A DNA stretch of 64,000 nucleotides. Source: Thermoplasmata archaeon. GTDB taxonomy: Archaea; Thermoplasmatota; Thermoplasmata; RBG-16-68-12; JAGMCJ01. Shown in pieces: positions 5,452-64,000 of this stretch; within the stretch, counting starts at the first letter, position 1, and each line of letters opens with the position of its first letter. The stretch covers positions 761-64,760 of the forward strand of contig JAGLRN010000034.1 of NCBI GenBank assembly GCA_023136265.1. The letters run 5' to 3'. The position numbers were made by a program, and so were the translations under genes. The notes below the pieces were generated by a model, which searched no databases, was not told where the DNA came from, and worked only from the letters and a program-made list of their open reading frames with translations.

Positions 5452-7641
5452 TTAGAAAGCGGATCTGGGCGGATGTCCGTTCGCCGGGAAGCACCTCGCG
5501 CGCACGCCCTTCCTCTCGATATCTATCTCTCCGCCCTCGACCAACTTCTTGACGTGATAGTTAGCTAGTTGCCTGCTTATCCCCATCAGCCTCGCGAGGT
5601 CGCTTATGGACATCCCTGGGGACTCGTTCACCCGCTCGAGTATGTCCTCCTGGATCGCGTGGAGGCCGTTGTCCGGTATCTTCATCCCAACTGGATAGAA
5701 GATCTTCCTGCTCCCCTTCGGCTTGGATACTATCAGGCCCTCCCGCTCGAGGACGTCCAGGTGATAGGTCAGCGTCCCGTTGTTCAGCTGCAGGTTCCGT
5801 TTTATCGCGGTGTAGTGCTCTCCAGGATGCACCTTGATGTAACCGTAGATCTGACCGCGCAGGAAGTGGTCCAGGATGTCCTTGCGCTTGAGCTTGACGT
5901 ACAGAGGAATCAGCAGGAACTTGAAGAGGCCGAACTTGCCCATCTCAGTGTTGAGGAACCCGCCCACGAAGGCGGCCGCGAGGAGTCCGAGCCCCAGCGG
6001 GATAATGATCGGGAACTCCTGAGCGGGAGCTTTCACGGCCACGTGGATTTCGTCGCTGGCCACGTTCCCGTCGTCGTCCTCCACGTGCAGGGTGACAGTG
6101 TAGTTGCCCGCCGCCTCGAACGCGTAGATCACCATCTGACCGGGAAGCTCAACGCTCGCATCGCCCAGCTCGATGACCCACAGGAAACTGGCGGTGTCCC
6201 AGAACCTCGGATCGTTGTCCGAGCAGTTGCCGGCGTCGAGAAGGACGGATTCGCCCACATTAGCCTCCCTGAAACCTCCCGCATCCGCGACGGGTGATGT
6301 TGTGTCGCGCACCGCTATCTTCACCGTGTCCATGTCCGAATTCCCGCCCGAGTCGCTGGCGGCAAGCGTTATCCAGTACGTGCCCGGAGTGTCGAAGACG
6401 TACTCCACGGTGAGCCCTTCGAGCCTGACGGAAGAGCCCTGGTCATCGAACTCCCAGATGAATACTCCCACGTCAAAGAAGTCAGGGCTGTTGTCCGTTG
6501 ACCCGCTCGCATTCAGCGTGAACGAAACGTCCTCGTCCACATCCTCGTTCTCACCCGCGCATGCCGTGGGCGGTGTGAGATCAGTGTCGAACACCAGCTC
6601 CACCCACGCGTTCGTCTCTATCGTCCTTAGAACCTCAGTCTCGTGCTCTCCCTTGCTCGCCGTGATGAAATACGGGTTGTGACTGTTGACCTCGAATTGG
6701 CTCAGCTCCGCCTCCGTTACGACGATATCCTTCACGATTCCGGACTCGTCCGTCCAGGCGGTCTTCTTGGCGCCGAGCCCGCTAGAGAGCAGGACCTCCG
6801 CCACGTGAACGGGCGTGGAGTGGACATCCGTCACCTCGACGGTGACGAACCACTGAATGAACACGCTCGAGAGCACATCCTCGTAGGATATCTTGCCCTC
6901 GTCAATCGTCGTGTTGATCAGTCTGGGATGGGAGTCCTCCATCACGACGAGGTCGATGAACGTGCCTGACACGGTCGAGTTTGCAATGATCGGGGAGGAG
7001 CCAGAAGCGAAGATCGAAATACCATTCCAAGTGACGGAGCTTGATTCGATGAAGGCTTCCGAGTTCTCCAGGTAGATGCCCCATTCGCCAGTCTCCTCTA
7101 CCATGGAGCCCTTCATTTCCACCGAGGAGTTCACGGAATAGATCCCAGCGAACTGGTTGTTGTTGAAATGAACGCTCTCCAGGGAGACAGAGGCCTGCTC
7201 CAGCAGCAAGAGACCGCGGTGTGCGTACTCGACCCTGGCGTTCTTGATGACGTTGTCGTGCCCCGTGAGGATGATGCTCCCCCAATCCCCCGCGTGCTTG
7301 ACAGTCGCGTTCGACGTGAATGTGATGCTCTCTCCCTCGGACGCGTCCGCGAAGAGGCGGCCCTCGACATACAGGCTCGAGTTCTCGTGAAGGAGCACGT
7401 CGACCCCCGGGTCAATGATGAGAACGTCCTCCATGCCCAGGACCGCATCATCAGTCACGATGAAGGGGCTCTCGTTGGCCTCCCAGTGCATGTCCTCGAT
7501 GAGCCCGTGTATGTATGTCGGACCTGCCGAAGCCTCGGGCGAAATAAGAGCTAGGCAGGAAAGAAGCATCACTAACATCAGAGCAATTGCGGAGCCCAGT
7601 CGAGCAATGCCTCTCGCCTCTTTCCTGCCCTTTCTGTTCAA
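5452..7641 (-). CDS. membrane-anchored surface protein: signal peptide, parallel beta-helix (NosD/PbH1-like) and 2 PKD-like domains outside, single TM, cytoplasmic tandem winged-HTH domains
   Basis: 729 aa. N-terminal signal sequence ...LISPEASA. PbH1-like repeats (NATV..., NSTVSG...). Two PKD-like segments (DTPGTYWITLAASDSGGN, FEAAGNYTVTLHVEDDDGN). Hydrophobic TM IIIPLGLGLLAAAFVGGFL. C-terminal ~160 aa carries two wHTH-like segments (ILDHFLRGQIYGYIKVHPGEHYTAIKRNL...LDVLEREGLI and MSISDLARLMGISRQLANYHVKKLVEGGEI). Confidence 0.7.
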   Translation of the reverse strand: MNRKGRKEARGIARLGSAIALMLVMLLSCLALISPEASAGPTYIHGLIEDMHWEANESPFIVTDDAVLGMEDVLIIDPGVDVLLHENSSLYVEGRLFADASEGESITFTSNATVKHAGDWGSIILTGHDNVIKNARVEYAHRGLLLLEQASVSLESVHFNNNQFAGIYSVNSSVEMKGSMVEETGEWGIYLENSEAFIESSSVTWNGISIFASGSSPIIANSTVSGTFIDLVVMEDSHPRLINTTIDEGKISYEDVLSSVFIQWFVTVEVTDVHSTPVHVAEVLLSSGLGAKKTAWTDESGIVKDIVVTEAELSQFEVNSHNPYFITASKGEHETEVLRTIETNAWVELVFDTDLTPPTACAGENEDVDEDVSFTLNASGSTDNSPDFFDVGVFIWEFDDQGSSVRLEGLTVEYVFDTPGTYWITLAASDSGGNSDMDTVKIAVRDTTSPVADAGGFREANVGESVLLDAGNCSDNDPRFWDTASFLWVIELGDASVELPGQMVIYAFEAAGNYTVTLHVEDDDGNVASDEIHVAVKAPAQEFPIIIPLGLGLLAAAFVGGFLNTEMGKFGLFKFLLIPLYVKLKRKDILDHFLRGQIYGYIKVHPGEHYTAIKRNLQLNNGTLTYHLDVLEREGLIVSKPKGSRKIFYPVGMKIPDNGLHAIQEDILERVNESPGMSISDLARLMGISRQLANYHVKKLVEGGEIDIERKGVRARCFPANGHPPRSAF

Positions 7642-14450: not shown

Positions 14451-14554
14451 GTCGGGGTGGCTCAGCCTGGTGGAGCGCCAGACTCATAGGGTTCGTTCGA
14501 AGAGCGCTCCTTGGAAATCTGGAGGTCGCGGGTTCAAAGCCCGCCCCCGACACC
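14451..14554 (+). tRNA. tRNA-Met (anticodon CAT), elongator-type, with ~30-nt intron just 3' of the anticodon
   Basis: Acceptor GTCGGGG/CCCCGAC with discriminator A. D arm GCTC..GAGC. Anticodon stem CCAGA/TCTGG with loop CTCATAG. An insertion GGTTCGTTCGAAGAGCGCTCCTTGGAAA sits between the anticodon loop and the 3' stem strand. T arm GCGGG-TTCAAAG-CCCGC. The gene starts 1 nt after the S3Ae stop codon. No CCA is encoded. Confidence 0.8.
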
Positions 14555-31557: not shown

Positions 31558-33072
31558 CTAGATTATCGGTGTGAGCATGGCCTTTGGACAGCCACTCGAG
31601 TGATCGAAGGAAATGGCATGGAGCTCGGTGTAGGGCTTCTCGCCGAAGAGAACAACGGAACCGTCTATGTTCTCGATCTTCAGATGGGTGTGGGCAAGAT
31701 TCGCGAGCGGTGCGGTGGAAGAAGTCGTTGACGTAACAATCCCTATGAAGATGTCCTTCGCCTTCCTGATCGACGACATGTGACCGGCCATATCCTCTAT
31801 CACTTGGTGACCGAAGACCGCCTCCAGGGTATCGAATCCCATCAGGGACAGGATCGGACGCTCCGCCTGCGAGAGATGATACTCGATGTTGCTCAATTTC
31901 AGCTCGTTGTCGATATCAGAACCCTCCATAGGGAGTGCTATCTTGGAATCCTCGACAGACGTTGTGGCGGACGGCTCGAACACGCGCATGCATCTCTCGA
32001 GCGCCTCCTGGCCGACAAAAGGCATGATTTCGTCCCTAACGATCTCCGAGGAGGCTTTCTTCTCGGGGACGAACGCAACTCCCCTGCCGAGTGAGATGAA
32101 ATTCGATAGGAGCGCGGTCTTGATGAGGTCGGTGTACAGCGTGTCGACATTCCCGCCTACCTCCAGAGCGACTATCGTACCCTTCTTGAATCCGCCTATC
32201 AGAGCGTCGAGTTGCTCGCTTCCCGTCGAGATCCAGTTCTCCGATATGTCCGGTATGGGTACCCAACTCGACTTCTCTTCCGGTATCTCAATCTTCTCGA
32301 AGCCGAAGGTCTTGATCCTCCCCCCGTCCAGAGTGTAGGCGCACTTGTGCTGCCTGATCTCGGTGCCGCGAAGCTTCTCGATCTTCATAATCCTCAAGCG
32401 TCTGCCCTCGTGTTCCTCGCTCGTGAACGTGATGACCCCGTCCCCAAGATAATCGAGCCGCGTCTCCCCAGGGCTCTCCAGCACATACAGGACATCGGAC
32501 GAGGAAGTCTCGACCAGGTCCTTCTGGAGTGTGTTCATTAGCTTCGAGGGGTGGATCCCGTATCTCTCCGCCAGCGCGTTGATGCTGTCTATCAGTATGA
32601 GGCTCTTCTCCGGGAGCGTGTCCTCGACCACATCATATGCCCTGTCGATCTCGGGGAGGTCCGATCCAAGGTCCAGGATGAGGCTGGTCTCCGTGACCTC
32701 GCCCTCGCTTATCTTGTCGTAAATGCTGCTCTCGTCCTCCTCGCCCATCTCTATCCTGCCCTCGAGCTTCTTGAGCTCCGTTCTGTCGACCTTGCCTTCC
32801 TCCTCCTCAGGCCTTTGGTCGAACCTTGTCGGGGCGATCCGCTTCTTGAACTCGACCCTGTCCTTGAGCCAAGGGAACTGGTTGTACAGGGAATGGTCGC
32901 TTACCCTGATCGACATGTAGTAGGAGTTCTCGACACTCCCCAGTTCCTCTGTCAGTTGCAGGGCGAACGTCGTCTTGCCCGTTCCCGCACTGCCCTTGAC
33001 TATCAGGGAATGTCCACCTGGCCCTTTGAAGAAATCCAGCAGCGCATTGGGAATACCCTTCTCTTCCTTCAT
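31558..33072 (-). CDS. two-domain KaiC-like RecA-superfamily ATPase (active N-domain, degenerate C-domain)
   Basis: 504 aa. Walker A GSAGTGKTTFALQ in domain 1, followed by a charged insert. Domain 2 (GGFKKGTIVALEVGGNVDTLYTDL) lacks a P-loop. Confidence 0.75.
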   Translation of the reverse strand: MKEEKGIPNALLDFFKGPGGHSLIVKGSAGTGKTTFALQLTEELGSVENSYYMSIRVSDHSLYNQFPWLKDRVEFKKRIAPTRFDQRPEEEEGKVDRTELKKLEGRIEMGEEDESSIYDKISEGEVTETSLILDLGSDLPEIDRAYDVVEDTLPEKSLILIDSINALAERYGIHPSKLMNTLQKDLVETSSSDVLYVLESPGETRLDYLGDGVITFTSEEHEGRRLRIMKIEKLRGTEIRQHKCAYTLDGGRIKTFGFEKIEIPEEKSSWVPIPDISENWISTGSEQLDALIGGFKKGTIVALEVGGNVDTLYTDLIKTALLSNFISLGRGVAFVPEKKASSEIVRDEIMPFVGQEALERCMRVFEPSATTSVEDSKIALPMEGSDIDNELKLSNIEYHLSQAERPILSLMGFDTLEAVFGHQVIEDMAGHMSSIRKAKDIFIGIVTSTTSSTAPLANLAHTHLKIENIDGSVVLFGEKPYTELHAISFDHSSGCPKAMLTPII

Positions 33073-37055: not shown

Positions 37056-37727
37056 CTATACTCCGGACACGACCATTATGAAGAGCATCTCGGCCGCTGC
37101 CGCGCAGGAATCCGAGGCGTTCTCCAGCGCTGTGAGGAAGTCGTTCAGCACGACCACGGCCTTCGGGTCGTCGACCGCTCTGAGCATCTCCTTCTTGAGG
37201 TCATAGTAGAGTACATCCACTTGCCTCTCGAACCGGTCGATCTCCTTACGTCCCCTGAGAACACGCGCGTCGCTCACCCCTAGGGCTTCCAAGCTCTGCC
37301 TGAGAACTCTCCCGCTATCGACGTTGAGCTTGGTCACTTCCTTGAACCTCATCCACAGGATGGGTTTGATGCGAGCCCTGGTCTCTATGAGGATCTCCAG
37401 GTTTCGCGAACCTGCCTTAGCCCAGTCCGCGGCCGAATCCACTCTTCTTATCAGCCGCATCAGGTCTCCTCTCGCGGAAGGGTCCATGTCCCCTTTCGAG
37501 ATCTCCTCGAAGATATCGTCCTCTATGCTGTCCGCTGCCGTCTCGTTTATGTCCAGACGTTTGATGGCCTCCATGGCCTGGGGTTTCTTGCCTGCCATCA
37601 TTCCAGCAATGGCATTGTCCAGCTCAACGAGCGCATCTTCGACCTTCTTCGCATGCTCCCGGGTCTGTTGCATCGCTCTGGATCCTCTTCTCTTTCGGAA
37701 CCAGCCGAGCATTCCGCTTTCACTCAA
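37056..37727 (-). CDS. DUF47 / PhoU-like family protein (putative transport regulator)
   Basis: 223 aa all-helical protein with the DUF47 layout (TIGR00153-like). 8-nt overlap with the upstream ABC ATPase gene. Confidence 0.6.
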   Translation of the reverse strand: MSESGMLGWFRKRRGSRAMQQTREHAKKVEDALVELDNAIAGMMAGKKPQAMEAIKRLDINETAADSIEDDIFEEISKGDMDPSARGDLMRLIRRVDSAADWAKAGSRNLEILIETRARIKPILWMRFKEVTKLNVDSGRVLRQSLEALGVSDARVLRGRKEIDRFERQVDVLYYDLKKEMLRAVDDPKAVVVLNDFLTALENASDSCAAAAEMLFIMVVSGV

Positions 37728-38820
37728 GTTTTATCACCTCCGAAAGGCCCTCCCTCGGTGCCGGGAAGGTAAGGATGTTCGTCTCATCGAAAGAGACGGC
37801 CACCTGCTCACCCTCCTTGAACTCCTCTCCCGTGAAGCTGTCCACGAAGACGTGGTCATCGCTTGCGAGGAGCACTTCGTACCTCAGGTAGGACCCCATG
37901 AACCTAATGCTCTCGATTCTTCCGGGGATCGCATTTCCAAGTCTTGTTCCCCTCAACTCCTCAACTCTCAGATTCTCCGGCCTCATCGCCAGGATTATCG
38001 CGGCACCCATCCGGAAGTCGCGATTGCTCAGCGTCAAGTACTCCTGATTCCTCAGCTCTATGATCGCCCAGTAGTCTCTGAGCTTGTTAATCGCTCCCTG
38101 GAGGAAGTTCATCTCGCCCACGAAATTCGCCGTGAAGATGCTCTTCGGGTTGTTGTAGAGGTTCTCCGGGGAGTCGATTTCCACTATCCTCCCCGCCCTC
38201 ATCACAACTATTCTGTCGGAGACGGAGCTCGCTTCCTCCTGATCGTGCGTGACGTGGACCGCTGTCAGGCCGAGGTCCTTGACGAGTCTTCTGAGCTCGT
38301 ATCTGAGGTCGACTCTGACCCTGGCATCCAACGCTGACATTGGCTCGTCCAGAATCAACAGCTTCGCCTGCGATGCCAACGCCCTCGCAAGGCCAGCCTT
38401 CTGTTGTGTGCCCGTGCTCAGCTCTCCTGGAAAGAACTTCTTGCGGTCCAGCAGGTCGACGAGGTCCAGAACCTCCTGGGCGATCTTGTCCCTCTCCTCG
38501 ACCGGGAAGTCCTTCACGATTGGTGCATATGTTGCGTTCGAGAGGACCGTCATATGGGGAAAGAGGGCGATGTTCTGGAACACGTAGCCTAGGTCCCTGT
38601 CCTCCACGGGGACCTCGTTCATTCTCTTCCCGTCTATGAGAATCTCTCCCTCCGTCGGCTCCCAGATCCCTGAGATGATTTTGACGAGCGTCGTCTTTCC
38701 GCAACCGCTGGGTCCGAGGAGGGTGACGTATTCCTTGTCCTCGATCGTGAGGTTCACGTCCTTCACGGCAACGATCTCGCCGAACCGCTTCGTAATCCCC
38801 TTGAGCTCGATCCGAGGCAC
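37720..38820 (-). CDS. ABC importer ATP-binding protein A with C-terminal TOBE-like domain
   Basis: Walker A GPSGCGKTT, Q-loop, signature LSTGTQQKAGLARAL, Walker B LILDEPMSALD. Probable GTG start at 38820 preceded by GGAGGTGGAG, overlapping the TAG of the upstream gene. The ORF track extends to 38877. Confidence 0.8.
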   Translation of the reverse strand: MPRIELKGITKRFGEIVAVKDVNLTIEDKEYVTLLGPSGCGKTTLVKIISGIWEPTEGEILIDGKRMNEVPVEDRDLGYVFQNIALFPHMTVLSNATYAPIVKDFPVEERDKIAQEVLDLVDLLDRKKFFPGELSTGTQQKAGLARALASQAKLLILDEPMSALDARVRVDLRYELRRLVKDLGLTAVHVTHDQEEASSVSDRIVVMRAGRIVEIDSPENLYNNPKSIFTANFVGEMNFLQGAINKLRDYWAIIELRNQEYLTLSNRDFRMGAAIILAMRPENLRVEELRGTRLGNAIPGRIESIRFMGSYLRYEVLLASDDHVFVDSFTGEEFKEGEQVAVSFDETNILTFPAPREGLSEVIKLE

Positions 38821-39929
38821 TACTCCACCTCCAGTTCTTCCTTCAAACCCTTCTCGGGTATGGGAAAGATGATGCACTTCGATGGTTCCAGGTGTGCCGT
38901 TACCTCCATGCCCTTGCGGAATTTGACGCCGATGGACGATGGCATCTTGACATGAAGCATCTTTCCACCGTCCGTCTCAATCACTATGCTCACCAGCCTG
39001 CCGAGGAAGAGCCTCCTCACGACTTTGGCGGGAATGTGGTTCTGCCCCTCCACGACCCCGTCGAGCAGCCTGACATTCTCCGTCTTTATTCCAACACAAG
39101 CCTCCGAGCCCCGTGGCAGGTCCGTCGGGCGGGCACGGAGGACGTATTCCTCCCCCTCGAGCTCACTGTGGTCCTCGCTCACAGAGTGCACAGTGCCCTC
39201 GAAGAAGTTGGCCTCGCCGACGAAATGGCAGATGAAAGGTCTCGCGGGATTATCATATATCTCCTCAGGTCTATCCAGTTGCTCTATCCTTCCCTTTCTC
39301 AGCACGGCAACCTTGTCCGCCATCGTCATCGCGATTTCCTGGTCATGGGTGACGTGCAGGGCGGTGATACCGAGGTCGGAGGTCAAACGCGCGAGCTCGT
39401 ACCTGAGCTCGATCCTCAGGCGGGCGTCGAGGGCCCGCAGTGGCTCATCCAACAGCAGGATTTTGACGTCGGTCGCCAGCGCCCGGGCGAGCGCATTCCT
39501 CTGCTTCATCCCGCCGCTTAGCTCGTCGGGGCGGGCGGTTCTCCTGTCGTAGAGCCTGACGAGGTTCAGCATCTCCCGGGCGAGCATATCGCATTTCGAC
39601 TCATCCCAGTCCTTGACTGTGGGGCCGAACTTCGTGTTATCCCAGACCGTCATGTGGCGGAACAGTGCATATGTCTGAGATAGGTAGACCATTCCCCTGT
39701 CCTCTGGCGGGAGGTTGTCCACCCGCTCGCCGTCCACGAATATCTTCCCGCTGTCAGGAGGCGTTAGGCCGGCAATCATCTTCAGGAGCGTCGTCTTTCC
39801 GGCTCCCGTCGGTCCGAGGATTACGATGTACTCTCCGTCCTTGACTTCGAGACTGATGTCATCCGCAGCGACTATGCCGTCGAACCTCTTGCTGAGACCT
39901 TCGAGCCTTATCGAGGGAATTCTAGGCAC
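38820..39929 (-). CDS. ABC importer ATP-binding protein B with C-terminal TOBE-like domain
   Basis: Walker A GPTGAGKTT, signature LSGGMKQRNALARAL, Walker B LLLDEPLRALD. Paralogous to ATPase A. Confidence 0.8.
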   Translation of the reverse strand: MPRIPSIRLEGLSKRFDGIVAADDISLEVKDGEYIVILGPTGAGKTTLLKMIAGLTPPDSGKIFVDGERVDNLPPEDRGMVYLSQTYALFRHMTVWDNTKFGPTVKDWDESKCDMLAREMLNLVRLYDRRTARPDELSGGMKQRNALARALATDVKILLLDEPLRALDARLRIELRYELARLTSDLGITALHVTHDQEIAMTMADKVAVLRKGRIEQLDRPEEIYDNPARPFICHFVGEANFFEGTVHSVSEDHSELEGEEYVLRARPTDLPRGSEACVGIKTENVRLLDGVVEGQNHIPAKVVRRLFLGRLVSIVIETDGGKMLHVKMPSSIGVKFRKGMEVTAHLEPSKCIIFPIPEKGLKEELEVE

Positions 39930-42216
39930 CTCCTCTCGTTGTCAACCTTCTCATGACGAGGACGATTATGAACGAGACCATTATCAATAGAATGCTGGCA
40001 AGCCCCGCCTGGTAGTAGCTTCCCGTCCTGATGAGTTCCACGATGTAGACCGGGGCGGTGATCGCTTTGGGGGATACCGCCAGCGTCGCACCTGTCTCTC
40101 CCAAGCTCCTGGTGAAGGTCATTATCGCACCAGCTAGGACTGAGGCCTTCATCATGGGGAACATCACCCGCTTGAAGACTTGCAGGGGTTTCGCACCGAG
40201 CGTTCTCGCGGTATCTTCGTATGTCGTGTCCAAACTCTCAAGGGCTCCGACCACATTTCTGACCACAAAGGGATAGGTGAAGGCCACATGGGCCATTATG
40301 ATGAGAAAGACGTCAGCAGTGACCGGCAGGAAGGGCTGGGTCGTCCAGAAGAGTCCAAGGGAGAAACCCAACGCGGCGGTCGGAACGATGAACGGTATGT
40401 TCACCAGAACATCGAGGATGCCCGCCGCCTTTTTCTTGCGTGAGCGTGCGATGAGAATCCCCATCGGGATCCCGAGAAGAAGGACTATCGTGGTCACCAC
40501 GCCCGCGATCGCGAACGAGAGGCCAAGGCTGCTCCAGAACGCTCCCCAATCTGCCGTCTGAGAGGGCTCTGCGGTCGCCACGAAGCCGAAGATGAAGAAC
40601 GCCGGGATCAGGACCACGAACGTGAGGAAGAAGAAGGCCCCTGCGTCCTTCAGTTTGGGGAAGGCCCCCTTGCTCAGTTTCTTCTCCAGATTCGTCCAGA
40701 CCTTTCTCATCGGCAGCTTGACCCTCGTGACGATTATCTTGACGATGATGAGCAGGATAATCGAGAGGACGATGAGCACAATGCTCACGAAGGCGAGGGC
40801 GGGAACGAGAGCGTCATTGAAGAGCGAGGCCGACTTCATCGTTCCGATCAGAGCCGTGGCATTGTATTCCCTGCTTTGGATCGTCGATAGTGCCGCCATG
40901 ACACCGCCCGTTTCGCTCAGCGTCTTCGCCAGGCAGAGTATGGCGCCTGTCACGATGCCGGACCTGAAGAGGGGCAAAGTGACGGTCCTCGCGGCAGTCA
41001 GTCTGCTCGCACCGCAGGCCCTCGCTGCCACCTCGTAGTTGATGTCGATCTCCTCGAGTATGGCCGCAAGGGACCGGACCATGTACGGGAAGGAGAATAC
41101 GATCTGTAGGAGGAGGAGCAGGACGAAGGCGGAGTTTGTGAAGCTTATCGCACCCCAGGGCTTGTCTATTCCCGGCGTTATCCCCCAGAAGAGGGCAGCC
41201 GAGAATCCCATGGCAGCCGTCGGGATTGCGAGCGGCATGTCAATCAGAGTGTTAACGTACGACTTCCCCCTGAACTCCTTCCTCACGAGGACCCAGGCGA
41301 TCGGGAGACCCACAGCGAGATCGATGAGGGTCGCGATTATGGCAACGACGAAGGACAGCGTCAGCGCCCCGGTGATCTGGGAGAGCACCTCCCTTGAGAA
41401 CGATCTCGTGAGGACCATTGGTGCTGGCGACGAATCGTCCACGGGGTCATCCACTCCGACGCCGATCCCTTTGAGATTGGAGCCCGTCCACAGGCCAGAG
41501 TCCTCGACAACCCTGACCCTGAAGTAGTGCACCTCATTGAGAGCGACGGTGACGACGGTGGAGTTCTCGGTATGGTTTGTTATCGTGTCCACGAGCGTGG
41601 CGCTTCCAGGAACGAATTGCGAATCATTGGACGCGTACACTTCGTAGCTGTCGAAGTCGTCGTCCTCGGAGACGGTCCAATTGACCGTGACGTTGTCCCC
41701 CTGAACCCAGAGCGAGAGGAGCTCGACAGGCTCCGGGGATGTGTACTGGGCGTCCATGTTGTCCGAGAGCTGGTTCGAGTCCGTCCACAGCCCGCTCGAG
41801 TCGACAACGCGTATCCTGGCATAGTACCGGTCACCGGCCGGTATCCCCGAGACCATGGTGAAGGTGCTCGACCTTGCCTTCTCGAGGCTGACATCTCCTC
41901 CCTTGGTGTCTATGGTCAGAACGAGCGTTGAGCTGTTGGGAGCGAATCCGCTTGTCGTTGAGAAGTGCACCTCGTATCCGACAAAGTCCTGATCGTTGTT
42001 CTTCTCCCAGTAGAGGTTCGTGGTCTTCTTGTTCCCGAACACTTGGGTCTGGATATCGTCCCATCCCGTGAAGGCGTAGGACATGACGTAGAGCGTGGGC
42101 AGTAGAACGATCAAGAGAAAGAAGAGAATGATGAAGGCGTACCAGGCCTTGGAGACTGACCGCCCTGAAACGAAGTTCAGTGCTCTCCTCCCCAAGTTCA
42201 TAGTTCCAACCTTCAC
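39922..42216 (-). CDS. fused two-domain ABC importer permease with N-terminal extracytoplasmic tandem FN3-like domains
   Basis: 764 aa. TM1 is followed by two ~100-aa beta-sandwich segments (YEVHFSTTSGF...YARIRVVDSSGLW; YEVYASNDSQF...YFRVRVVEDSGLW). Then two permease modules, each with an EAA loop (ILEEIDINYEVAARACGAS...; ALESLDTTYEDTARTLGAK...). Confidence 0.75.
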   Translation of the reverse strand: MKVGTMNLGRRALNFVSGRSVSKAWYAFIILFFLLIVLLPTLYVMSYAFTGWDDIQTQVFGNKKTTNLYWEKNNDQDFVGYEVHFSTTSGFAPNSSTLVLTIDTKGGDVSLEKARSSTFTMVSGIPAGDRYYARIRVVDSSGLWTDSNQLSDNMDAQYTSPEPVELLSLWVQGDNVTVNWTVSEDDDFDSYEVYASNDSQFVPGSATLVDTITNHTENSTVVTVALNEVHYFRVRVVEDSGLWTGSNLKGIGVGVDDPVDDSSPAPMVLTRSFSREVLSQITGALTLSFVVAIIATLIDLAVGLPIAWVLVRKEFRGKSYVNTLIDMPLAIPTAAMGFSAALFWGITPGIDKPWGAISFTNSAFVLLLLLQIVFSFPYMVRSLAAILEEIDINYEVAARACGASRLTAARTVTLPLFRSGIVTGAILCLAKTLSETGGVMAALSTIQSREYNATALIGTMKSASLFNDALVPALAFVSIVLIVLSIILLIIVKIIVTRVKLPMRKVWTNLEKKLSKGAFPKLKDAGAFFFLTFVVLIPAFFIFGFVATAEPSQTADWGAFWSSLGLSFAIAGVVTTIVLLLGIPMGILIARSRKKKAAGILDVLVNIPFIVPTAALGFSLGLFWTTQPFLPVTADVFLIIMAHVAFTYPFVVRNVVGALESLDTTYEDTARTLGAKPLQVFKRVMFPMMKASVLAGAIMTFTRSLGETGATLAVSPKAITAPVYIVELIRTGSYYQAGLASILLIMVSFIIVLVMRRLTTRGGA

Positions 42217-42302
42217 AAGTTGGCCTAAGCCTTTGGGGGATATTCTCCTTCGATAGTTATACTTTCACCCTCTCGGAACCGTCGCCCCGGCGATCTGAGA
42301 AA

Positions 42303-42314
42303 GTCAATATATAC
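42303..42314 (+). promoter_or_regulatory. TATA box (AATATATAC) for oxidoreductase operon
   Basis: Lies ~39 nt upstream of ATG 42353, which is preceded by the strong SD GAGGAGGAGG. Confidence 0.4.
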
Positions 42315-42352
42315 GATGTCACATCACCCTCTTGCTTGAGGAGGAGGATGAA

Positions 42353-59107: not shown

Positions 59108-59117
59108 GCTTAAATAC
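59108..59117 (+). promoter_or_regulatory. putative TATA box (TTAAATAC) for giant surface-protein gene
   Basis: Lies ~60 nt upstream of the first in-frame ATG (59177). The frame is opened by the TAA at 59111. Confidence 0.3.
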
Positions 59118-59176
59118 CCAGTAGGTCAATTGAAAGCAAAGACTCCAGCATACCGTCCAGAGTGAAACCTGTAAGA

Positions 59177-62100
59177 ATGCGGTTTTTCTTCGGAAGGGGG
59201 GAAGGAGTACAAAACGACGCAGAGGAGTGGGTCAATTTGACGAAATGGACTGCTATTCTACAGCAGACAAAGAGAGCCAGGTCTATATCGATAGTTGTTG
59301 TTCTTATTCTTGGCACTCTGGTAATGGCTGCACAACCGCAAGAGGAAGGTCAGGGCGAGTTGCCTACATGGCCGAATGAGACCGATTGGGTGAACTACAC
59401 CTTTGATGGAGAGAGGATCCGTGATTGGGAGGACAAACCCTACGAGACAGATCCCACACATGGTCCCGCTGATGTCAATCCAGACGCGGTGGATATTGCA
59501 TCTGGTGTTGACGCTACCGGCGGGGGTCCCGAGAACAACCCAGGTGATTACACGTCTGTCCAGTACTACTACTATGATGAGTATGGTGACAGCGATAACT
59601 TCACAAACATCGAAGACGACTGGATGTTTCTCAGGATGCGAGTCGCTGGTGATCCCAAGCACGGTGGGAAATACGCCTATAAGGCCTACCACTGGGACAT
59701 CCTCTTCGAGTTCGACTATGACGAGTGGAAGGAGCTTGTCGTCGACCTCAACGGAGGTAACGGATACTATAAGTTCGGCACAGTAGGAACCTATTACAAC
59801 AATTCGCTCACGCACCGTTATGATCCAGACAACGATTGGATATGGCGAGCGGAGGCCAGTGGGAACTTGAACAATTACACCCGAGTCACGGACATCAATT
59901 ATAGCAACGGAGATCCAGATGATGATCAATGGTGGATCGAGTACATGATACCGGTCACAGCCTTCAAGGCCGACAACGATACCCAGCTTCTAGGGAAGGA
60001 TACGTACTTCCTCCTGTTCTTCAGCACCTCTGCGTCGCTGACGAATCCTCTGCAGAAGGACTGGATGGGAGAGTTCGTGTTCGGGGAGCCGGCAAACCTG
60101 ACGGTTGCGAAGGTCGCTCAGGAGGAGATAGTCTCCCCGGGTGACACGATCCACTATACTATGTATTATAACAACACGGGAGACTTCCTATCGAAGTACG
60201 TCTGGGTGAACGACACGATTCCTGGGGGAACGACGTACGAGAGCGCCTATCCTGCTCCGGCTTCAATCGATGGGAGCGTTGTCAGATGGTTCTTCGAGGA
60301 TGTTCTTCCTGGGAACTACTCCATCCTGTTGAACGTGACGGTCGGTGCTGACATAGGTGACGGCACGATACTCACGAACTACGTCTATCTCAACTTCACG
60401 GACTCGACCGGTGGATACGTGGGCGAGGTCTGGGACAGCGTGGATGTCCTCGTAACGGGACCCACAATGGAATTCTCAAAGGCCGTCAGCATTGAGTATG
60501 CGGATCCTGGTGATACAATAACCTACACGCTCACATATTCGAACACTGGAGCGGGGACCGCCACAGACGTCACGATAGTAGACACGATCCCGCCAGAGAC
60601 CACATTCGTGGACTCAACTCCAATGTACGATGAAGTGGACGGAGACACGTACACGTGGTACATCGGGACTGTTCCGGGATATACTACTGGATATGTCTAC
60701 ATCGATGTCACAGTGGACGCCTACACTGAGAACGGAACGCTCCTCGTCAACTACGCCACCATGGACTTCGATGACGTGAACGGCAATCCGCAGGATCAGC
60801 TAGACGACTACGCAAACGTCACCGTGACCGCTCCACTCATGACTGTATCGAAGGTCGCTGATGTGGAGTATGCTGACCCAGGCGACACGATTGTTTACAC
60901 GATAACGTATGAGAACACACTGACTGGAACCGCTACGGACGTTGTCGTCGAGGATATCATACCGAGCTACACCACGCTCGTTGAGACCAATCCGATGTAC
61001 GACGACTTCGATGGAACCACAATCACGTGGCTGCTCGGAGAAGTCCCTGGAGTCTCAGGCGGAACGATTACTGTGACGGTGACAGTCGACGCCTTCACGC
61101 CAGATGAGACCGTTCTTACCAACCTTGTGATGCTCAACTACGATGACGCTAATGGCAACCCCTATCCGATGGAGAGCGACACGGCAACGGTCGTCGTGAC
61201 GGCGCCAATCATGTCGTTTTCGAAGGAAGCCGACGCAGATTACGCGGATCCGGGGGACACAATCACCTATTGGCTCAACTACTCGAACTATGGAACGGGG
61301 CTTGCGACGGATGTTACAGTCGTGGATGTGATACCCTCAGACACGACGTTCATCTCGTCCGATCCTTCGTACACATCGCATGATGGTGACACGTACACAT
61401 GGTTAGTGGGAGACGTCTCCTCCGGAGGTTCAGGCACGATAACCGTCGTGGTTCAAGTGGACGCCGGAACAGCAGACGGCACCGAACTCACCAACTACGC
61501 AACCCTGGACTACGACGACGCGAACGGGAACTCGCAGCCTCAGCTGGACGATAGTACGACTACCTTCGTCACCGCCCCAGTCATGACCGTGACCAAGACG
61601 GCCAATGTCGACTTCGCTGATCCGGGAGACCAGATAGTCTATTGGGTTTTCTATGAGAACACCGGGACCGGATGGGCGACGAATGTGGTGATACAGGACA
61701 CCATTCCCGAGCATGTAACATTCATCAGTTCCGACCCAGCGTATACGAGTGTCGATGGCAGGACCTACACGTGGGAGATTGGCGATGTTGGTCCAGGTTC
61801 CAGTGACACCATCACCATCACCGTCGAGGTCGACGCGGGAACGTCTGATGAGATCGTACTCACGAACTACGTGCTCCTCCAGTACCAGGACAACAATGGA
61901 AACGATATGCCCGATGAGGAGGACAGCGAAACGGTCACCGTGACCGCCCCTGTGATGACGTTCAGCAAGACCGCCGACGTCGACTACGCAGACCCAAGTG
62001 ACGAGATTACATACACTTTGAGCTATCAGAATGTCGGGACTGGCGTGGCAACGGATGTCGTCGTCACGGATACAATCCCAGAGCATACGTCCTATGTGAG

Positions 62101-64000
62101 CTCCAGTCCGACCTATGACCAGGTGAGTGATCGCACCTACACCTGGAACGTCGGGACCGTTCAGCCCGGTGCGGGAGGTTCGATAACCCTTGTCGTCGAG
62201 GTCGATGCTGGAACTGCTGACGAAACAGTGCTCACGAACGCGGGCACACTGGACTACGACGATGCGAATGGGAACCCCCTGCCTCAACTAACCGATACCG
62301 CCGAAACCACAGTCACCTCGCCGATAATGTCACTCTCCAAGGAGGCTGACGTGGAGTACGCCGACCCAGGGGACAGCATTGTCTACACGATATCCTACTA
62401 CAACCATGGCACCGGTGTCGCCACCGATGTGACAATCGTGGATACGATTCCATCCGATACCACCTTCCAGAGCGCATCCCCTTCACCGGACAACGAGAAC
62501 GGCGATGTTCTGACTTGGTATGTGGGAATCGTGGATGCCGACTCAGGCGGAACGATAACAGTCACAGTGACTGTTGATGCGTTCACACCCGATGAGACAG
62601 TTCTCAACAACACCGTTACACTTGACTATGACGACGCAAACGGGAATCCCTACGACCAGCTCTCAGACTACGCGGTGACGTTCACAACGGCCCCAATCAT
62701 GACCGTGACTAAGGTGGCCGACGTGGAATACGCCGATCCTAGCGATACCATCATGTACACTATCACGTACACGAACTCCGGGACCGGATCTGCCACCAAC
62801 GTCGTCATCGAGGACACGATACCGCCAGAGACCACGTTCCAGAATTCCAATCCCACTTACACATCCAAGAGCGGAGACACATACACGTGGGATATCGGGA
62901 CAGTCGGTCCAGGCGTTACCGGACATGTCTACATCAACGTGACAGTGGATGCTGGAACCCCAGATCAGACCGTGATGACCAACTTCGTCGTTCTGAACTA
63001 TGACGACAACAACAGCAATGAGCAGCCGGAAGAGGACGACAGTGTGGACGTGACAGTCACTGCACCCGTCATGACCATAAGCAAGGTGGCGGATGTGGCC
63101 ACGGCGGATCCCGGTGATTACATAGAGTACACAATTACGTATGAGAACACAGGGACAGGCGATGCCACCGACGTGACGATAGTGGACACGATTCCGGCGG
63201 AGACCACCTTCATCGATTCGGATCCCGACTACACGTCTCAGAACGGGGACACCTACACATGGGAGGTCGGCGATGTCGGAGCTGGTGATAGCGGGACCAT
63301 TTCGGTCACCGTTCAGGTCGATGTCGGAACAGCTGACGGCACGGTCTTGACCAACACGGTCGTTATGAACTATGACGATGCCAATGGAAACCCGATTCCG
63401 GAGGAGTCTGATAGCGTAGACGTCACCGTCACGGCTCCGATAATGACAATCAGCAAGTGTGCGGATGTCAGTACCGCCGACCCAGGCGATTCCATTACGT
63501 ACACGATAAAGTACAAGAACACTGGAAGCGGACAGGCCACAGGTGTTGTAGTCACAGACACAATACCTGCTGATACCACATTCAGCAGCTCAAATCCAAC
63601 CTACGACGAGGTGAGTGGAGACACATACACCTGGAACATCGGCGTTGTTGGCGCGTACAGCAGCGGAACGATAACTGTCGTTGTCACCGTCGATATCGGA
63701 ACTCCTGATGGTACTGTCCTCACGAACAGCGTGACGTTGGACTACGACGATGCCAATGGGAACCCATACCCGCAGGAAAGCGACTCCGTGGATGTTACTG
63801 TAACGGCTCCGATAGTGTCGTTCAGTAAGTCCGTCGACAAGAGCCAGGCGAATCCTGATGACACGCTCGTCTACACGCTCTCATATGAGAACACCGGAAC
63901 TGGCTGGACAACCGGCATTGTCGTGAATGACACGATACCGGCCGACACGACTTTCGTTAGTTCCGACCCGAACTTCGACTTCAACAGCGGGGACTTCTAC
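59177..64000 (+). CDS. giant cell-surface protein with at least 11 tandem DUF11 (conserved repeat) domains; 3' end beyond window
   Basis: Frame is open from 59114 to the window end. Signal-anchor ...KRARSISIVVVLILGTLVMAA (alternative TTG start at 59237). Repeats of ~123 aa follow the consensus APIMT.SK.ADVEYADPGDTI.YT.TY.NTGTG.ATDV.IVDTIP..TTF..S.P.Y......DTYTW.IG.V.PG.SGTITV.V.VDAGT.D.TVLTN...LDYDDANGNP. Confidence 0.75.
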   Translation, partial: MRFFFGRGEGVQNDAEEWVNLTKWTAILQQTKRARSISIVVVLILGTLVMAAQPQEEGQGELPTWPNETDWVNYTFDGERIRDWEDKPYETDPTHGPADVNPDAVDIASGVDATGGGPENNPGDYTSVQYYYYDEYGDSDNFTNIEDDWMFLRMRVAGDPKHGGKYAYKAYHWDILFEFDYDEWKELVVDLNGGNGYYKFGTVGTYYNNSLTHRYDPDNDWIWRAEASGNLNNYTRVTDINYSNGDPDDDQWWIEYMIPVTAFKADNDTQLLGKDTYFLLFFSTSASLTNPLQKDWMGEFVFGEPANLTVAKVAQEEIVSPGDTIHYTMYYNNTGDFLSKYVWVNDTIPGGTTYESAYPAPASIDGSVVRWFFEDVLPGNYSILLNVTVGADIGDGTILTNYVYLNFTDSTGGYVGEVWDSVDVLVTGPTMEFSKAVSIEYADPGDTITYTLTYSNTGAGTATDVTIVDTIPPETTFVDSTPMYDEVDGDTYTWYIGTVPGYTTGYVYIDVTVDAYTENGTLLVNYATMDFDDVNGNPQDQLDDYANVTVTAPLMTVSKVADVEYADPGDTIVYTITYENTLTGTATDVVVEDIIPSYTTLVETNPMYDDFDGTTITWLLGEVPGVSGGTITVTVTVDAFTPDETVLTNLVMLNYDDANGNPYPMESDTATVVVTAPIMSFSKEADADYADPGDTITYWLNYSNYGTGLATDVTVVDVIPSDTTFISSDPSYTSHDGDTYTWLVGDVSSGGSGTITVVVQVDAGTADGTELTNYATLDYDDANGNSQPQLDDSTTTFVTAPVMTVTKTANVDFADPGDQIVYWVFYENTGTGWATNVVIQDTIPEHVTFISSDPAYTSVDGRTYTWEIGDVGPGSSDTITITVEVDAGTSDEIVLTNYVLLQYQDNNGNDMPDEEDSETVTVTAPVMTFSKTADVDYADPSDEITYTLSYQNVGTGVATDVVVTDTIPEHTSYVSSSPTYDQVSDRTYTWNVGTVQPGAGGSITLVVEVDAGTADETVLTNAGTLDYDDANGNPLPQLTDTAETTVTSPIMSLSKEADVEYADPGDSIVYTISYYNHGTGVATDVTIVDTIPSDTTFQSASPSPDNENGDVLTWYVGIVDADSGGTITVTVTVDAFTPDETVLNNTVTLDYDDANGNPYDQLSDYAVTFTTAPIMTVTKVADVEYADPSDTIMYTITYTNSGTGSATNVVIEDTIPPETTFQNSNPTYTSKSGDTYTWDIGTVGPGVTGHVYINVTVDAGTPDQTVMTNFVVLNYDDNNSNEQPEEDDSVDVTVTAPVMTISKVADVATADPGDYIEYTITYENTGTGDATDVTIVDTIPAETTFIDSDPDYTSQNGDTYTWEVGDVGAGDSGTISVTVQVDVGTADGTVLTNTVVMNYDDANGNPIPEESDSVDVTVTAPIMTISKCADVSTADPGDSITYTIKYKNTGSGQATGVVVTDTIPADTTFSSSNPTYDEVSGDTYTWNIGVVGAYSSGTITVVVTVDIGTPDGTVLTNSVTLDYDDANGNPYPQESDSVDVTVTAPIVSFSKSVDKSQANPDDTLVYTLSYENTGTGWTTGIVVNDTIPADTTFVSSDPNFDFNSGDFY
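60093..64000 (+). repeat. in-frame tandem repeat array, ~370-bp period, >=11 copies (DUF11 domain repeats)
   Basis: ADPGD[TS]I.YT motifs recur near 60130, 60500, 60870, 61240, 61620, 61990, 62360, 62730, 63100, 63470 and 63840. Confidence 0.6.

Follow-up and report, generated by a model that had tools for sequence, protein, structure and literature searches.

How does an archaeal importer of the ATP-binding cassette (ABC) type obtain its cargo when no gene for a substrate-binding protein (SBP) lies beside it, and why should it be encoded together with a DUF47 protein of the kind that in bacteria accompanies Pit phosphate transporters? These questions are raised by four overlapping minus-strand genes at positions 37056-42201 of the window, the whole 64-kb stretch of DNA analysed here, which belongs to a 72-kb metagenomic contig of a Thermoplasmata archaeon. 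The list of open reading frames (ORFs) gives a fused permease, two TOBE-ATPases and a DUF47 protein. The initial annotation of this DNA called the pairing of DUF47 with an ABC system atypical and noted that no SBP gene is adjacent. Neither is an oddity of this locus: both are fixed features of a family present in at least 296 species-level genomes, and the cassette belongs to an archaeal transporter family that is conserved but uncharacterised and has a PitR-type partner. Our preferred reading, to which we give a probability of about 0.55, is that the four genes encode one type-I importer with a PitR-type partner, that its cargo is probably phosphate or another oxyanion, that no SBP is linked to it and that the fibronectin type III (FN3) domains of its permease are optional.

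The importer cassette, its conservation and a sister family

The operon anatomy stands as first described, with four minus-strand ORFs whose domains and overlaps are as claimed. Consecutive genes overlap by 8, 1 and 8 nucleotides (permease/ATPase A, ATPase A/ATPase B and ATPase B/DUF47), the GTG start of ATPase A falling within the last permease codons and the TTG start of DUF47 within the end of ATPase B. The longest ORF of ATPase B spans 37720-38877, and gene callers together with the sequence place its real start at the GTG at 38820, inside TAGTG and after GGAGGTGGAG. The initial annotation had recognised this start and the motif before it, both of which are real, but had given it to ATPase A rather than to ATPase B, the downstream gene. 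For the permease an alternative GTG start at 42216 would yield 764 residues, while public gene calls use the ATG at 42201. Translation of the four genes is coupled, so their products are probably synthesised jointly.

Within the permease, Pfam recognises BPD_transp_1 (PF00528) twice (95 bits), and the two halves are 29% identical to each other, with an EAA-type loop in both. Family alignments show a highly conserved membrane core (53-63% mean column identity) and a strongly conserved region around the first transmembrane helix (TM1), in which F27, F28, P35, T36, Y42 and W47 are invariant. Both ATPases match ABC_tran (PF00005; 120 bits) and TOBE_2, and they are 42% identical. ATPase A carries a Walker A motif GPTGAGKT, a signature LSGGM, a Walker B motif LLLDEP and an H-loop HVTHD. 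The Walker A motif, the Walker B glutamate and the H-loop are kept in 74 ATPase A and 68 ATPase B orthologues. The signature LSGGM of ATPase A is invariant in the family; that of ATPase B varies (LCGGE, LSGGE, LSGGA), and is LSTGT in the window copy. A degenerate ATP site was considered and rejected, as Walker A, the Walker B glutamate and the H-loop are intact in both ATPases. Permease and ATPases are thus those of a type-I importer, with BPD_transp_1 and an EAA loop in the one and ABC ATPase motifs in the others. The conserved A/B pair suggests an asymmetric ATPase heterodimer on an asymmetric fused permease. All four products would form one complex of the type-I, binding-protein-dependent fold, in which a single polypeptide of 12 transmembrane (TM) helices replaces the usual two permease subunits, the two paralogous ATPases pair as a heterodimer, each bearing a regulatory TOBE domain at its C-terminus, and a cytoplasmic PhoU-superfamily protein of PitR/DUF47 type completes the assembly.

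A scan of one genome per GTDB species for the permease found 296 genomes with a relative, and the best 80 of the 296 were taken for locus analysis; these 80 are all Thermoplasmatota, mostly Methanomassiliicoccales. ORFs in these loci were chosen greedily by length, a crude procedure, and compared with the four window proteins, and order was counted in the 64 loci (Thermoplasmatota) in which 3 kb or more of sequence follows the permease. Two ATPases are present in 63/64 and DUF47 in 62/64, in the same order (permease-ATPase-ATPase-DUF47) and on the same strand. The 8-nucleotide ATPase B/DUF47 overlap recurs in 55/65 related loci, and cultured Methanomassiliicoccus luminyensis carries the same four genes. 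More distant full-length permease relatives came from a profile search of 1.8 billion representative proteins: the same cassette, at 36-50% permease identity, occurs in a Thermoproteota metagenome-assembled genome (L091), an unclassified archaeon (L092) and a member of the Bathyarchaeota (L090). In L090 the DUF47 gene lies across the permease on the opposite strand, still adjacent, and since adjacency survived this rearrangement, it provides independent evidence for DUF47 as a part of the system. A literature search on DUF47 with ABC transporters and on archaeal PhoU/AbrB found nothing on this system.

The cassette behaves and moves as a self-contained unit. In Methanomassiliicoccaceae its four genes lie exactly between an NTP-transferase gene and a PGM/PMM gene (L002, 8934-15873), and in M. 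luminyensis the PGM gene overlaps the DUF47 stop by 4 nucleotides. In the window organism the NTP_transferase and PGM/PMM genes are adjacent and overlapping, in a contiguous LSM, NTP-transferase and PGM/PMM block at ~15.5-18.2 kb (+). A functional link of the cassette to these sugar-nucleotide genes was rejected, because the two adjoin each other elsewhere in the window organism and the cassette looks inserted between them in Methanomassiliicoccaceae. Two departures from the common layout were noted. One locus (L049, 11464-13641) has both ATPase genes as a single ORF of ~725 residues, a true fusion or an assembly frameshift; and a sub-branch of the family (L161, L163, L170-L172 and L089) has a single ATPase gene and lacks DUF47, also where the contigs are long.

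The lack of an adjacent SBP gene, as originally claimed, holds well beyond the operon. Pfam matches of the called genes at 13.4-52.2 kb and from 48 kb to ~5 kb past position 64000, with other large ORFs scanned directly, contain no SBP family, either inside the window or past its end. Around the related cassettes, at least 64 in number, clustering of flanking ORFs gave no recurrent SBP, and secreted or anchored proteins of 200-700 residues within three genes of the cassette were only antisense artefacts, bar a neighbouring PstS in 3 loci. The Thermoproteota and Bathyarchaeia cassettes (L091 and L090) likewise have no SBP gene nearby.

The most distant full-length relative placed in context (L093, relative P0200) has a different composition, which the initial annotation did not foresee: ATPase (TOBE end)-DUF47-SBP-permease. 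Its SBP, of 376 residues, has an N-terminal membrane anchor and Pfam matches to SBP_bac_11 and SBP_bac_8. In the protein collection it has 842 relatives, of which those with names come from Bathyarchaeia, Thermoprotei/Thermoproteales and Nitrososphaeria, and a metagenome scan with its profile returned 80 loci. Among these, the order ATP-ATP-DUF47-SBP-PERM is found in 15 complete cases plus variants and SBP-PERM-ATP-ATP-DUF47 in 7 plus variants; SBP-PERM-ATP is also seen, with or without DUF47. This sister family of Bathyarchaeia, Thermoproteota and Nitrososphaeria shares with the window cassette a homologous fused permease (~30% identity), homologous TOBE-ATPases and DUF47, and the same tight clustering. 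Unlike the cassette it has a dedicated, membrane-anchored SBP, its gene order is often circularly permuted and large outer-loop inserts are rare; like the cassette it has no characterised member. No homologue of its SBP was found in the flanks of any SBP-less cassette. The sister SBP has no solved relative, its sole trace being an insignificant similarity to a sulfate-binding protein. In JGI annotation several copies (P0363, P0372, P0381 and others) bear the name 'Ca-activated chloride channel family protein', likely a mis-annotation given the Pfam assignment to SBP_bac_11.

In a neighbour-joining tree of permease cores, SBP-linked and SBP-less loci split into separate groups, and a bootstrap of this distance-based tree with Poisson correction (200 replicates) unites Thermoplasmatota with the Bathyarchaeota cassette L090 in 200/200. 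Since the sister family has DUF47 together with a dedicated SBP, the lack of an SBP is a derived condition of the whole clade rather than a chance feature of one locus. A single SBP loss is likely, not proven. The ancestor would be a five-gene archaeal system with a membrane-anchored binding protein of SBP_bac_11 type, and the window branch, which no longer has an SBP gene in or near the operon, would use an SBP encoded elsewhere or work without one.

The PitR-type partner and the nature of the cargo

The DUF47 protein matches PhoU_div (PF01865) as a single domain over residues 15-220, at 67.4 bits against a cutoff of 24.4, and Pfam found PF01865 only, with no match to the double PF01895 PhoU repeats. 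Against NCBIfam TIGR00153 it scores 55.5, below the cutoff of 104.3. These scores point to a divergent subgroup of the PitR/DUF47 proteins, in whose cassette members four acidic pairs of ExxxD type are invariant. Its neighbour is always the ABC ATPase in the window and its relatives, and no Pit (PHO4) family appears in the Pfam tables of either. A word-indexed protein search with DUF47 returned only matches of at least 78% identity and is uninformative on DUF47 partners elsewhere.

A 2026 genetic study of Staphylococcus aureus shows that the single PhoU_div protein PitR, together with its cognate transporter, controls phosphate homeostasis (PMC13170248). Across 926 bacterial genomes PitR co-occurs with PitA in 97.8% and adjoins pitA with one exception; the PhoU clades each act with a cognate phosphate transporter of their own, and every characterised PhoU-superfamily accessory protein acts on phosphate transport (PMC13170248). 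The initial annotation was therefore right that DUF47 beside an ABC system is unusual, and the tight pairing of a PitR-type protein with an ABC importer is a new variant, the bacterial PitR proteins being found almost exclusively with Pit. The cassette accessory resembles those of PitA-PitR systems (S. aureus PitR, Bacillus subtilis YkaA) in being a single-domain PF01865 protein with conserved acidic pairs that is tightly linked to one transporter. It differs in that its partner is an ABC importer and not a Pit (PHO4) secondary carrier, in scoring below the TIGR00153 cutoff and in being archaeal, whereas the published survey was confined to bacteria. Judged by the analogous cases of PhoU on PstSCAB and PitR on Pit, DUF47 most likely docks on the cytoplasmic ATPase/TOBE side, where it would throttle or report transport.

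For the permease, the closest solved structures are the ModB proteins of Archaeoglobus fulgidus (2ONK) and Methanosarcina acetivorans (3D31). Among NCBIfam models, both halves match CysT, ModB and WtpB best, at 175-198 bits summed over the two modules. The ModB score (189.8 against a cutoff of 182.6) passes only by this summing; WtpB (177 against 340) and CysT (175 against 246) stay below their cutoffs. The ATPases match the PhnT2, PotA, WtpC, UgpC and CysA models about equally, every one below cutoff, with scores for the two proteins of 260 and 248 for WtpC (cutoff 440), 233 and 228 for CysA (502) and 152 and 168 for ModC (285); no PstB model is among their 25 best NCBIfam matches. Permease homology would thus indicate an importer of oxyanion type, and no more; the DUF47 gene tells more about the cargo. 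The polyamine, iron and thiamine readings found in the initial annotation or in public annotations gain no specific support from the family scores, and these annotations were rejected because the scores lie far below the cutoffs: the permease scores 55.8 against 821 for ThiP, and the ATPases 225 and 261 against 496 for the ferric ATPase model. Public names such as iron or thiamine permease, and the chloride channel name of the sister SBP, are therefore unsupported and would mislead metabolic reconstructions.

Neighbouring genes give a second line of evidence. In 9 loci the 10-kb flanks contain an AbrB-PhoU fusion regulator, which in most cases is the gene adjoining the cassette. In 3 loci (L040, 4114-9733; L020; L026) a complete operon of pstS, fused pstCA, pstB, phoU and a metallophosphoesterase gene is divergent from the cassette, with which it shares an intergenic region of ~270 nucleotides. 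A second DUF47 paralogue adjoins the cassette in 5 loci (L031, L039, L053, L069 and L079). No molybdopterin, tungsten-enzyme or sulfate-assimilation genes were seen among the recurrent neighbours of related loci. Together, the PitR-type partner and the phosphate-gene neighbours point to phosphate or a related oxyanion. The cargo would most likely be a tetrahedral oxyanion, with phosphate or a related phosphorus oxyanion as the tentative best guess, just short of even odds, and with sulfate, molybdate or tungstate next, at roughly one chance in three. The earlier suggestion of an oxyanion or phosphate-like substrate was a reasonable one.

Set against known systems, the cassette is composite. 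Like PstSCAB-PhoU it is a type-I importer operon that ends in a PhoU-superfamily gene after an ATPase gene, and in that system too the accessory presumably rests on the ATPase, limiting or reporting transport; canonical pst-phoU operons adjoin the cassette in three relatives. Unlike PstSCAB-PhoU it has no PstS gene, a permease outside the PstC/PstA family, two distinct TOBE-ATPases rather than a PstB homodimer, and a single PhoU_div domain rather than a double PF01895 PhoU. The ModBC, WtpBC and CysTWA systems (for example A. fulgidus ModB2C2A, PDB 2ONK) share with it the closest permease family and fold and the C-terminal TOBE domains of the ATPases, but in the cassette the permease is fused in one chain, the ATPases are two distinct proteins, DUF47 is added, no ModA, WtpA or Sbp gene is present and the family cutoffs are not reached. 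In short, the layout is that of PstSCAB-PhoU, the accessory that of PitA-PitR and the membrane parts are of ModB/CysTW type, and the cassette falls outside each of these families by their membership tests.

The FN3 insert and competing explanations

Two FN3-like domains had been proposed after TM1 of the permease, and structure prediction agrees. Pfam fn3 scores 27 bits in the window permease against a cutoff of 25, no single stretch passing alone; in relatives the score reaches 47.7 bits. AlphaFold2, run on residues 1-290 with an alignment of 16 homologues, gives the TM1 helix, two all-beta domains (residues ~57-143 and ~163-250) at a predicted local distance difference test score (pLDDT) of ~90 or above, and then the next TM helix. 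Foldseek against the PDB returned 413 matches at E<=0.001, of which the top 50 are almost all tandem FN3 modules, neogenin FN5-6 and LAR FN1-2 among them. Six of the seven N-x-S/T sequons of the whole permease fall in the 215-residue insert, and this concentration suggests that it is probably outward-facing and glycosylated. In orthologues of ~550 residues, which comprise most Methanomassiliicoccales and the Bathyarchaeota and Thermoproteota members, the TM1-TM2 loop is ~15 residues long. Some relatives have one FN3 domain and the window clade two, while relatives of 665 residues carry an unrelated domain of ~125 residues at the same loop, for which prediction gives another kind of Ig-like sandwich and weak matches of NPC2/RhoGDI type. 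Conservation is poor in the FN3 insert relative to the membrane core. Large outer-loop inserts are nearly confined to the SBP-less branch, whose outer face may be freer to change. On this comparison the FN3 pair appears to be a lineage-specific, surface-exposed decoration at a recurrently modified loop, outside the core mechanism. The tandem insert is the sole local speciality of the window copy, which is otherwise an ordinary member of its branch.

The initial annotation had offered the FN3 domains as a stand-in for substrate capture, which would explain the missing gene if the pair captured substrate, or docked a partner, at the permease mouth. The position of the insert in an outer loop and the near restriction of such inserts to the SBP-less branch are in keeping with this proposal. 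There is also a precedent: in the maltose transporter the MalF P2 loop, a folded Ig-like beta-sandwich in an outer loop of a type-I importer permease, contacts the maltose-binding protein. The window insert is likewise a beta-sandwich in an outer loop of such a permease, although MalF P2 lies between other helices, whereas here a tandem FN3 pair follows TM1 and a binding protein is not known. As a substitute for an SBP the insert was nevertheless rejected, and we regard the proposal as very improbable: most SBP-less orthologues, those of M. luminyensis and of the Thermoproteota and Bathyarchaeota among them, are insert-free and stand in the same cassette; one clade has the different Ig-like domain and another a single FN3; the insert is conserved poorly; and FN3 domains have no known oxyanion-binding role. 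Because the insert is absent from most orthologues and varies by clade, FN3 is no general answer to the missing SBP. A more serious competitor, possible though doubtful, concerns the cargo. The cassette could be a molybdate/tungstate or sulfate/thiosulfate importer of the ModBC/WtpBC/CysTWA kind with its SBP elsewhere, DUF47 being a general oxyanion regulator unrelated to phosphate. The profile matches of both permease halves, the archaeal ModB structures, the TOBE domains typical of ModC, CysA and WtpC, and a sister SBP of SBP_bac_11 type with a faint, insignificant resemblance to a sulfate-binding protein all fit such an importer. Yet every equivalog cutoff is missed once the two-module doubling is allowed for, the characterised PhoU-superfamily accessories act on phosphate transport (PMC13170248), and the informative recurrent neighbours are phosphate genes, with no molybdenum, tungsten or sulfate genes seen among them. 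The SBP-less cassette might, finally, be mainly a sensor (a 'trigger transporter') that reports oxyanion status, inside or outside the cell, through DUF47 to a regulator, with net uptake secondary. The neighbouring AbrB-PhoU DNA-binding protein, which adjoins DUF47 in several loci, is a candidate regulator, PstSCAB-PhoU has a signalling role in bacteria (PMC13170248), and loss of a binding protein fits a reduced transport role. Intact catalytic motifs in both ATPases across the family, the high conservation of the membrane core and the lack of an adjacent regulator at most loci, the window included, make this improbable.

Several observations weigh against the preferred reading of a PitR-partnered, probably phosphate-type importer whose branch has lost its linked SBP. 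The permease scores 52.8 bits for PstC (cutoff 196) and 40.6 bits for PstA (cutoff 193), far below its CysT, ModB and WtpB scores, and the sister SBP belongs to SBP_bac_11 and not to the PstS family. The phosphate genes near the cassette cluster in a small number of related clades, which amounts to few independent events, and the window has none; the genomes with an adjacent pst operon already own a complete phosphate ABC system. The association of DUF47 with the ATPases is drawn from analogy rather than from physical evidence. All SBP-less forms group as one clade in only 114/200 bootstrap replicates, and an unlinked SBP encoded elsewhere in the genome is possible, the searches having covered loci and flanks.

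Current thinking on phosphate homeostasis assigns each PhoU-type accessory a single transporter family, with PhoU going with Pst, PitR with Pit and the NptA domain with NptA. In the cassette a PitR-type protein is linked equally tightly to a non-Pst ABC importer, in hundreds of species that belong to several archaeal phyla and include no characterised example. The family is also a natural experiment on the need of type-I importers for an SBP, one branch having an SBP and its sister branch none nearby. In its boldest form, which we consider unlikely, the Thermoplasmatota-centred branch would be a natural type-I importer of phosphate or another oxyanion that works without any SBP and is gated by a PitR-type protein. 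If true, this would be a fourth pairing of transporter and accessory in phosphate homeostasis and, within the binding-protein-dependent importer class, the first wild-type member to be independent of a binding protein. The cultured host M. luminyensis makes the questions of the SBP and of the pairing directly testable.

Feature coordinates and other observations in the window

Table 1. Coordinates of the cassette genes, their domains and the upstream region in the 64-kb window
Feature	Position	Strand	Details
Intergenic region, presumed promoter	42202..42331	.	common to divergent 2-oxoacid:ferredoxin oxidoreductase gene
Fused type-I ABC importer permease	39922..42201	-	ATG 42201, 759 aa; ~12 TM; two BPD_transp_1 modules; hydropathy
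TM1	42067..42144	-	residues ~20-45; helix 18-45 in AlphaFold2 model
FN3 domain 1	41776..42033	-	residues ~57-142; extracytoplasmic TM1-TM2 loop; AlphaFold2, Foldseek
FN3 domain 2	41452..41715	-	residues ~163-250; AlphaFold2, Foldseek
Permease module 1	40702..41388	-	residues ~272-500; EAA-type loop EEIDINYEVAARACGAS...LPL
Permease module 2	39925..40644	-	residues ~520-759; EAA-type loop ESLDTTYEDTARTLGAK...FPM
ATPase A	38820..39929	-	369 aa; ABC_tran + TOBE_2
ATPase B	37720..38820	-	366 aa; ABC_tran + TOBE_2
DUF47 / PhoU_div (PitR-type) protein	37056..37727	-	223 aa; TTG start

A full-window Rfam scan found only two tRNAs, one of which, at 14451-14552 (+), covers 102 nucleotides against a model of 71 positions and is probably intron-bearing. 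A GvpD/KaiC-like double P-loop ATPase of 504 residues at 31558-33072 (-) has several small winged-helix genes beside it; gas-vesicle genes were not seen nearby. At the far end, a frame at 59112-64000 (+) is open for at least 1629 codons and runs off the window; from ~60.3 kb it contains at least 10 tandem repeats of 372 nucleotides (124 residues) that are 60-76% identical, and it looks like a giant repeat-rich surface protein. Public gene calls in this region give only a CLIPPER/PKD protein further on and leave ~3.5 kb without a called gene. Finally, a protein of 729 residues at 5452-7641 (-) joins beta-helix/NosD-like and PKD parts to a C-terminal HVO_0163-type helix-turn-helix and a MarR-like winged helix, an unusual mix of surface-type parts, expected outside the cell, and DNA-binding parts.

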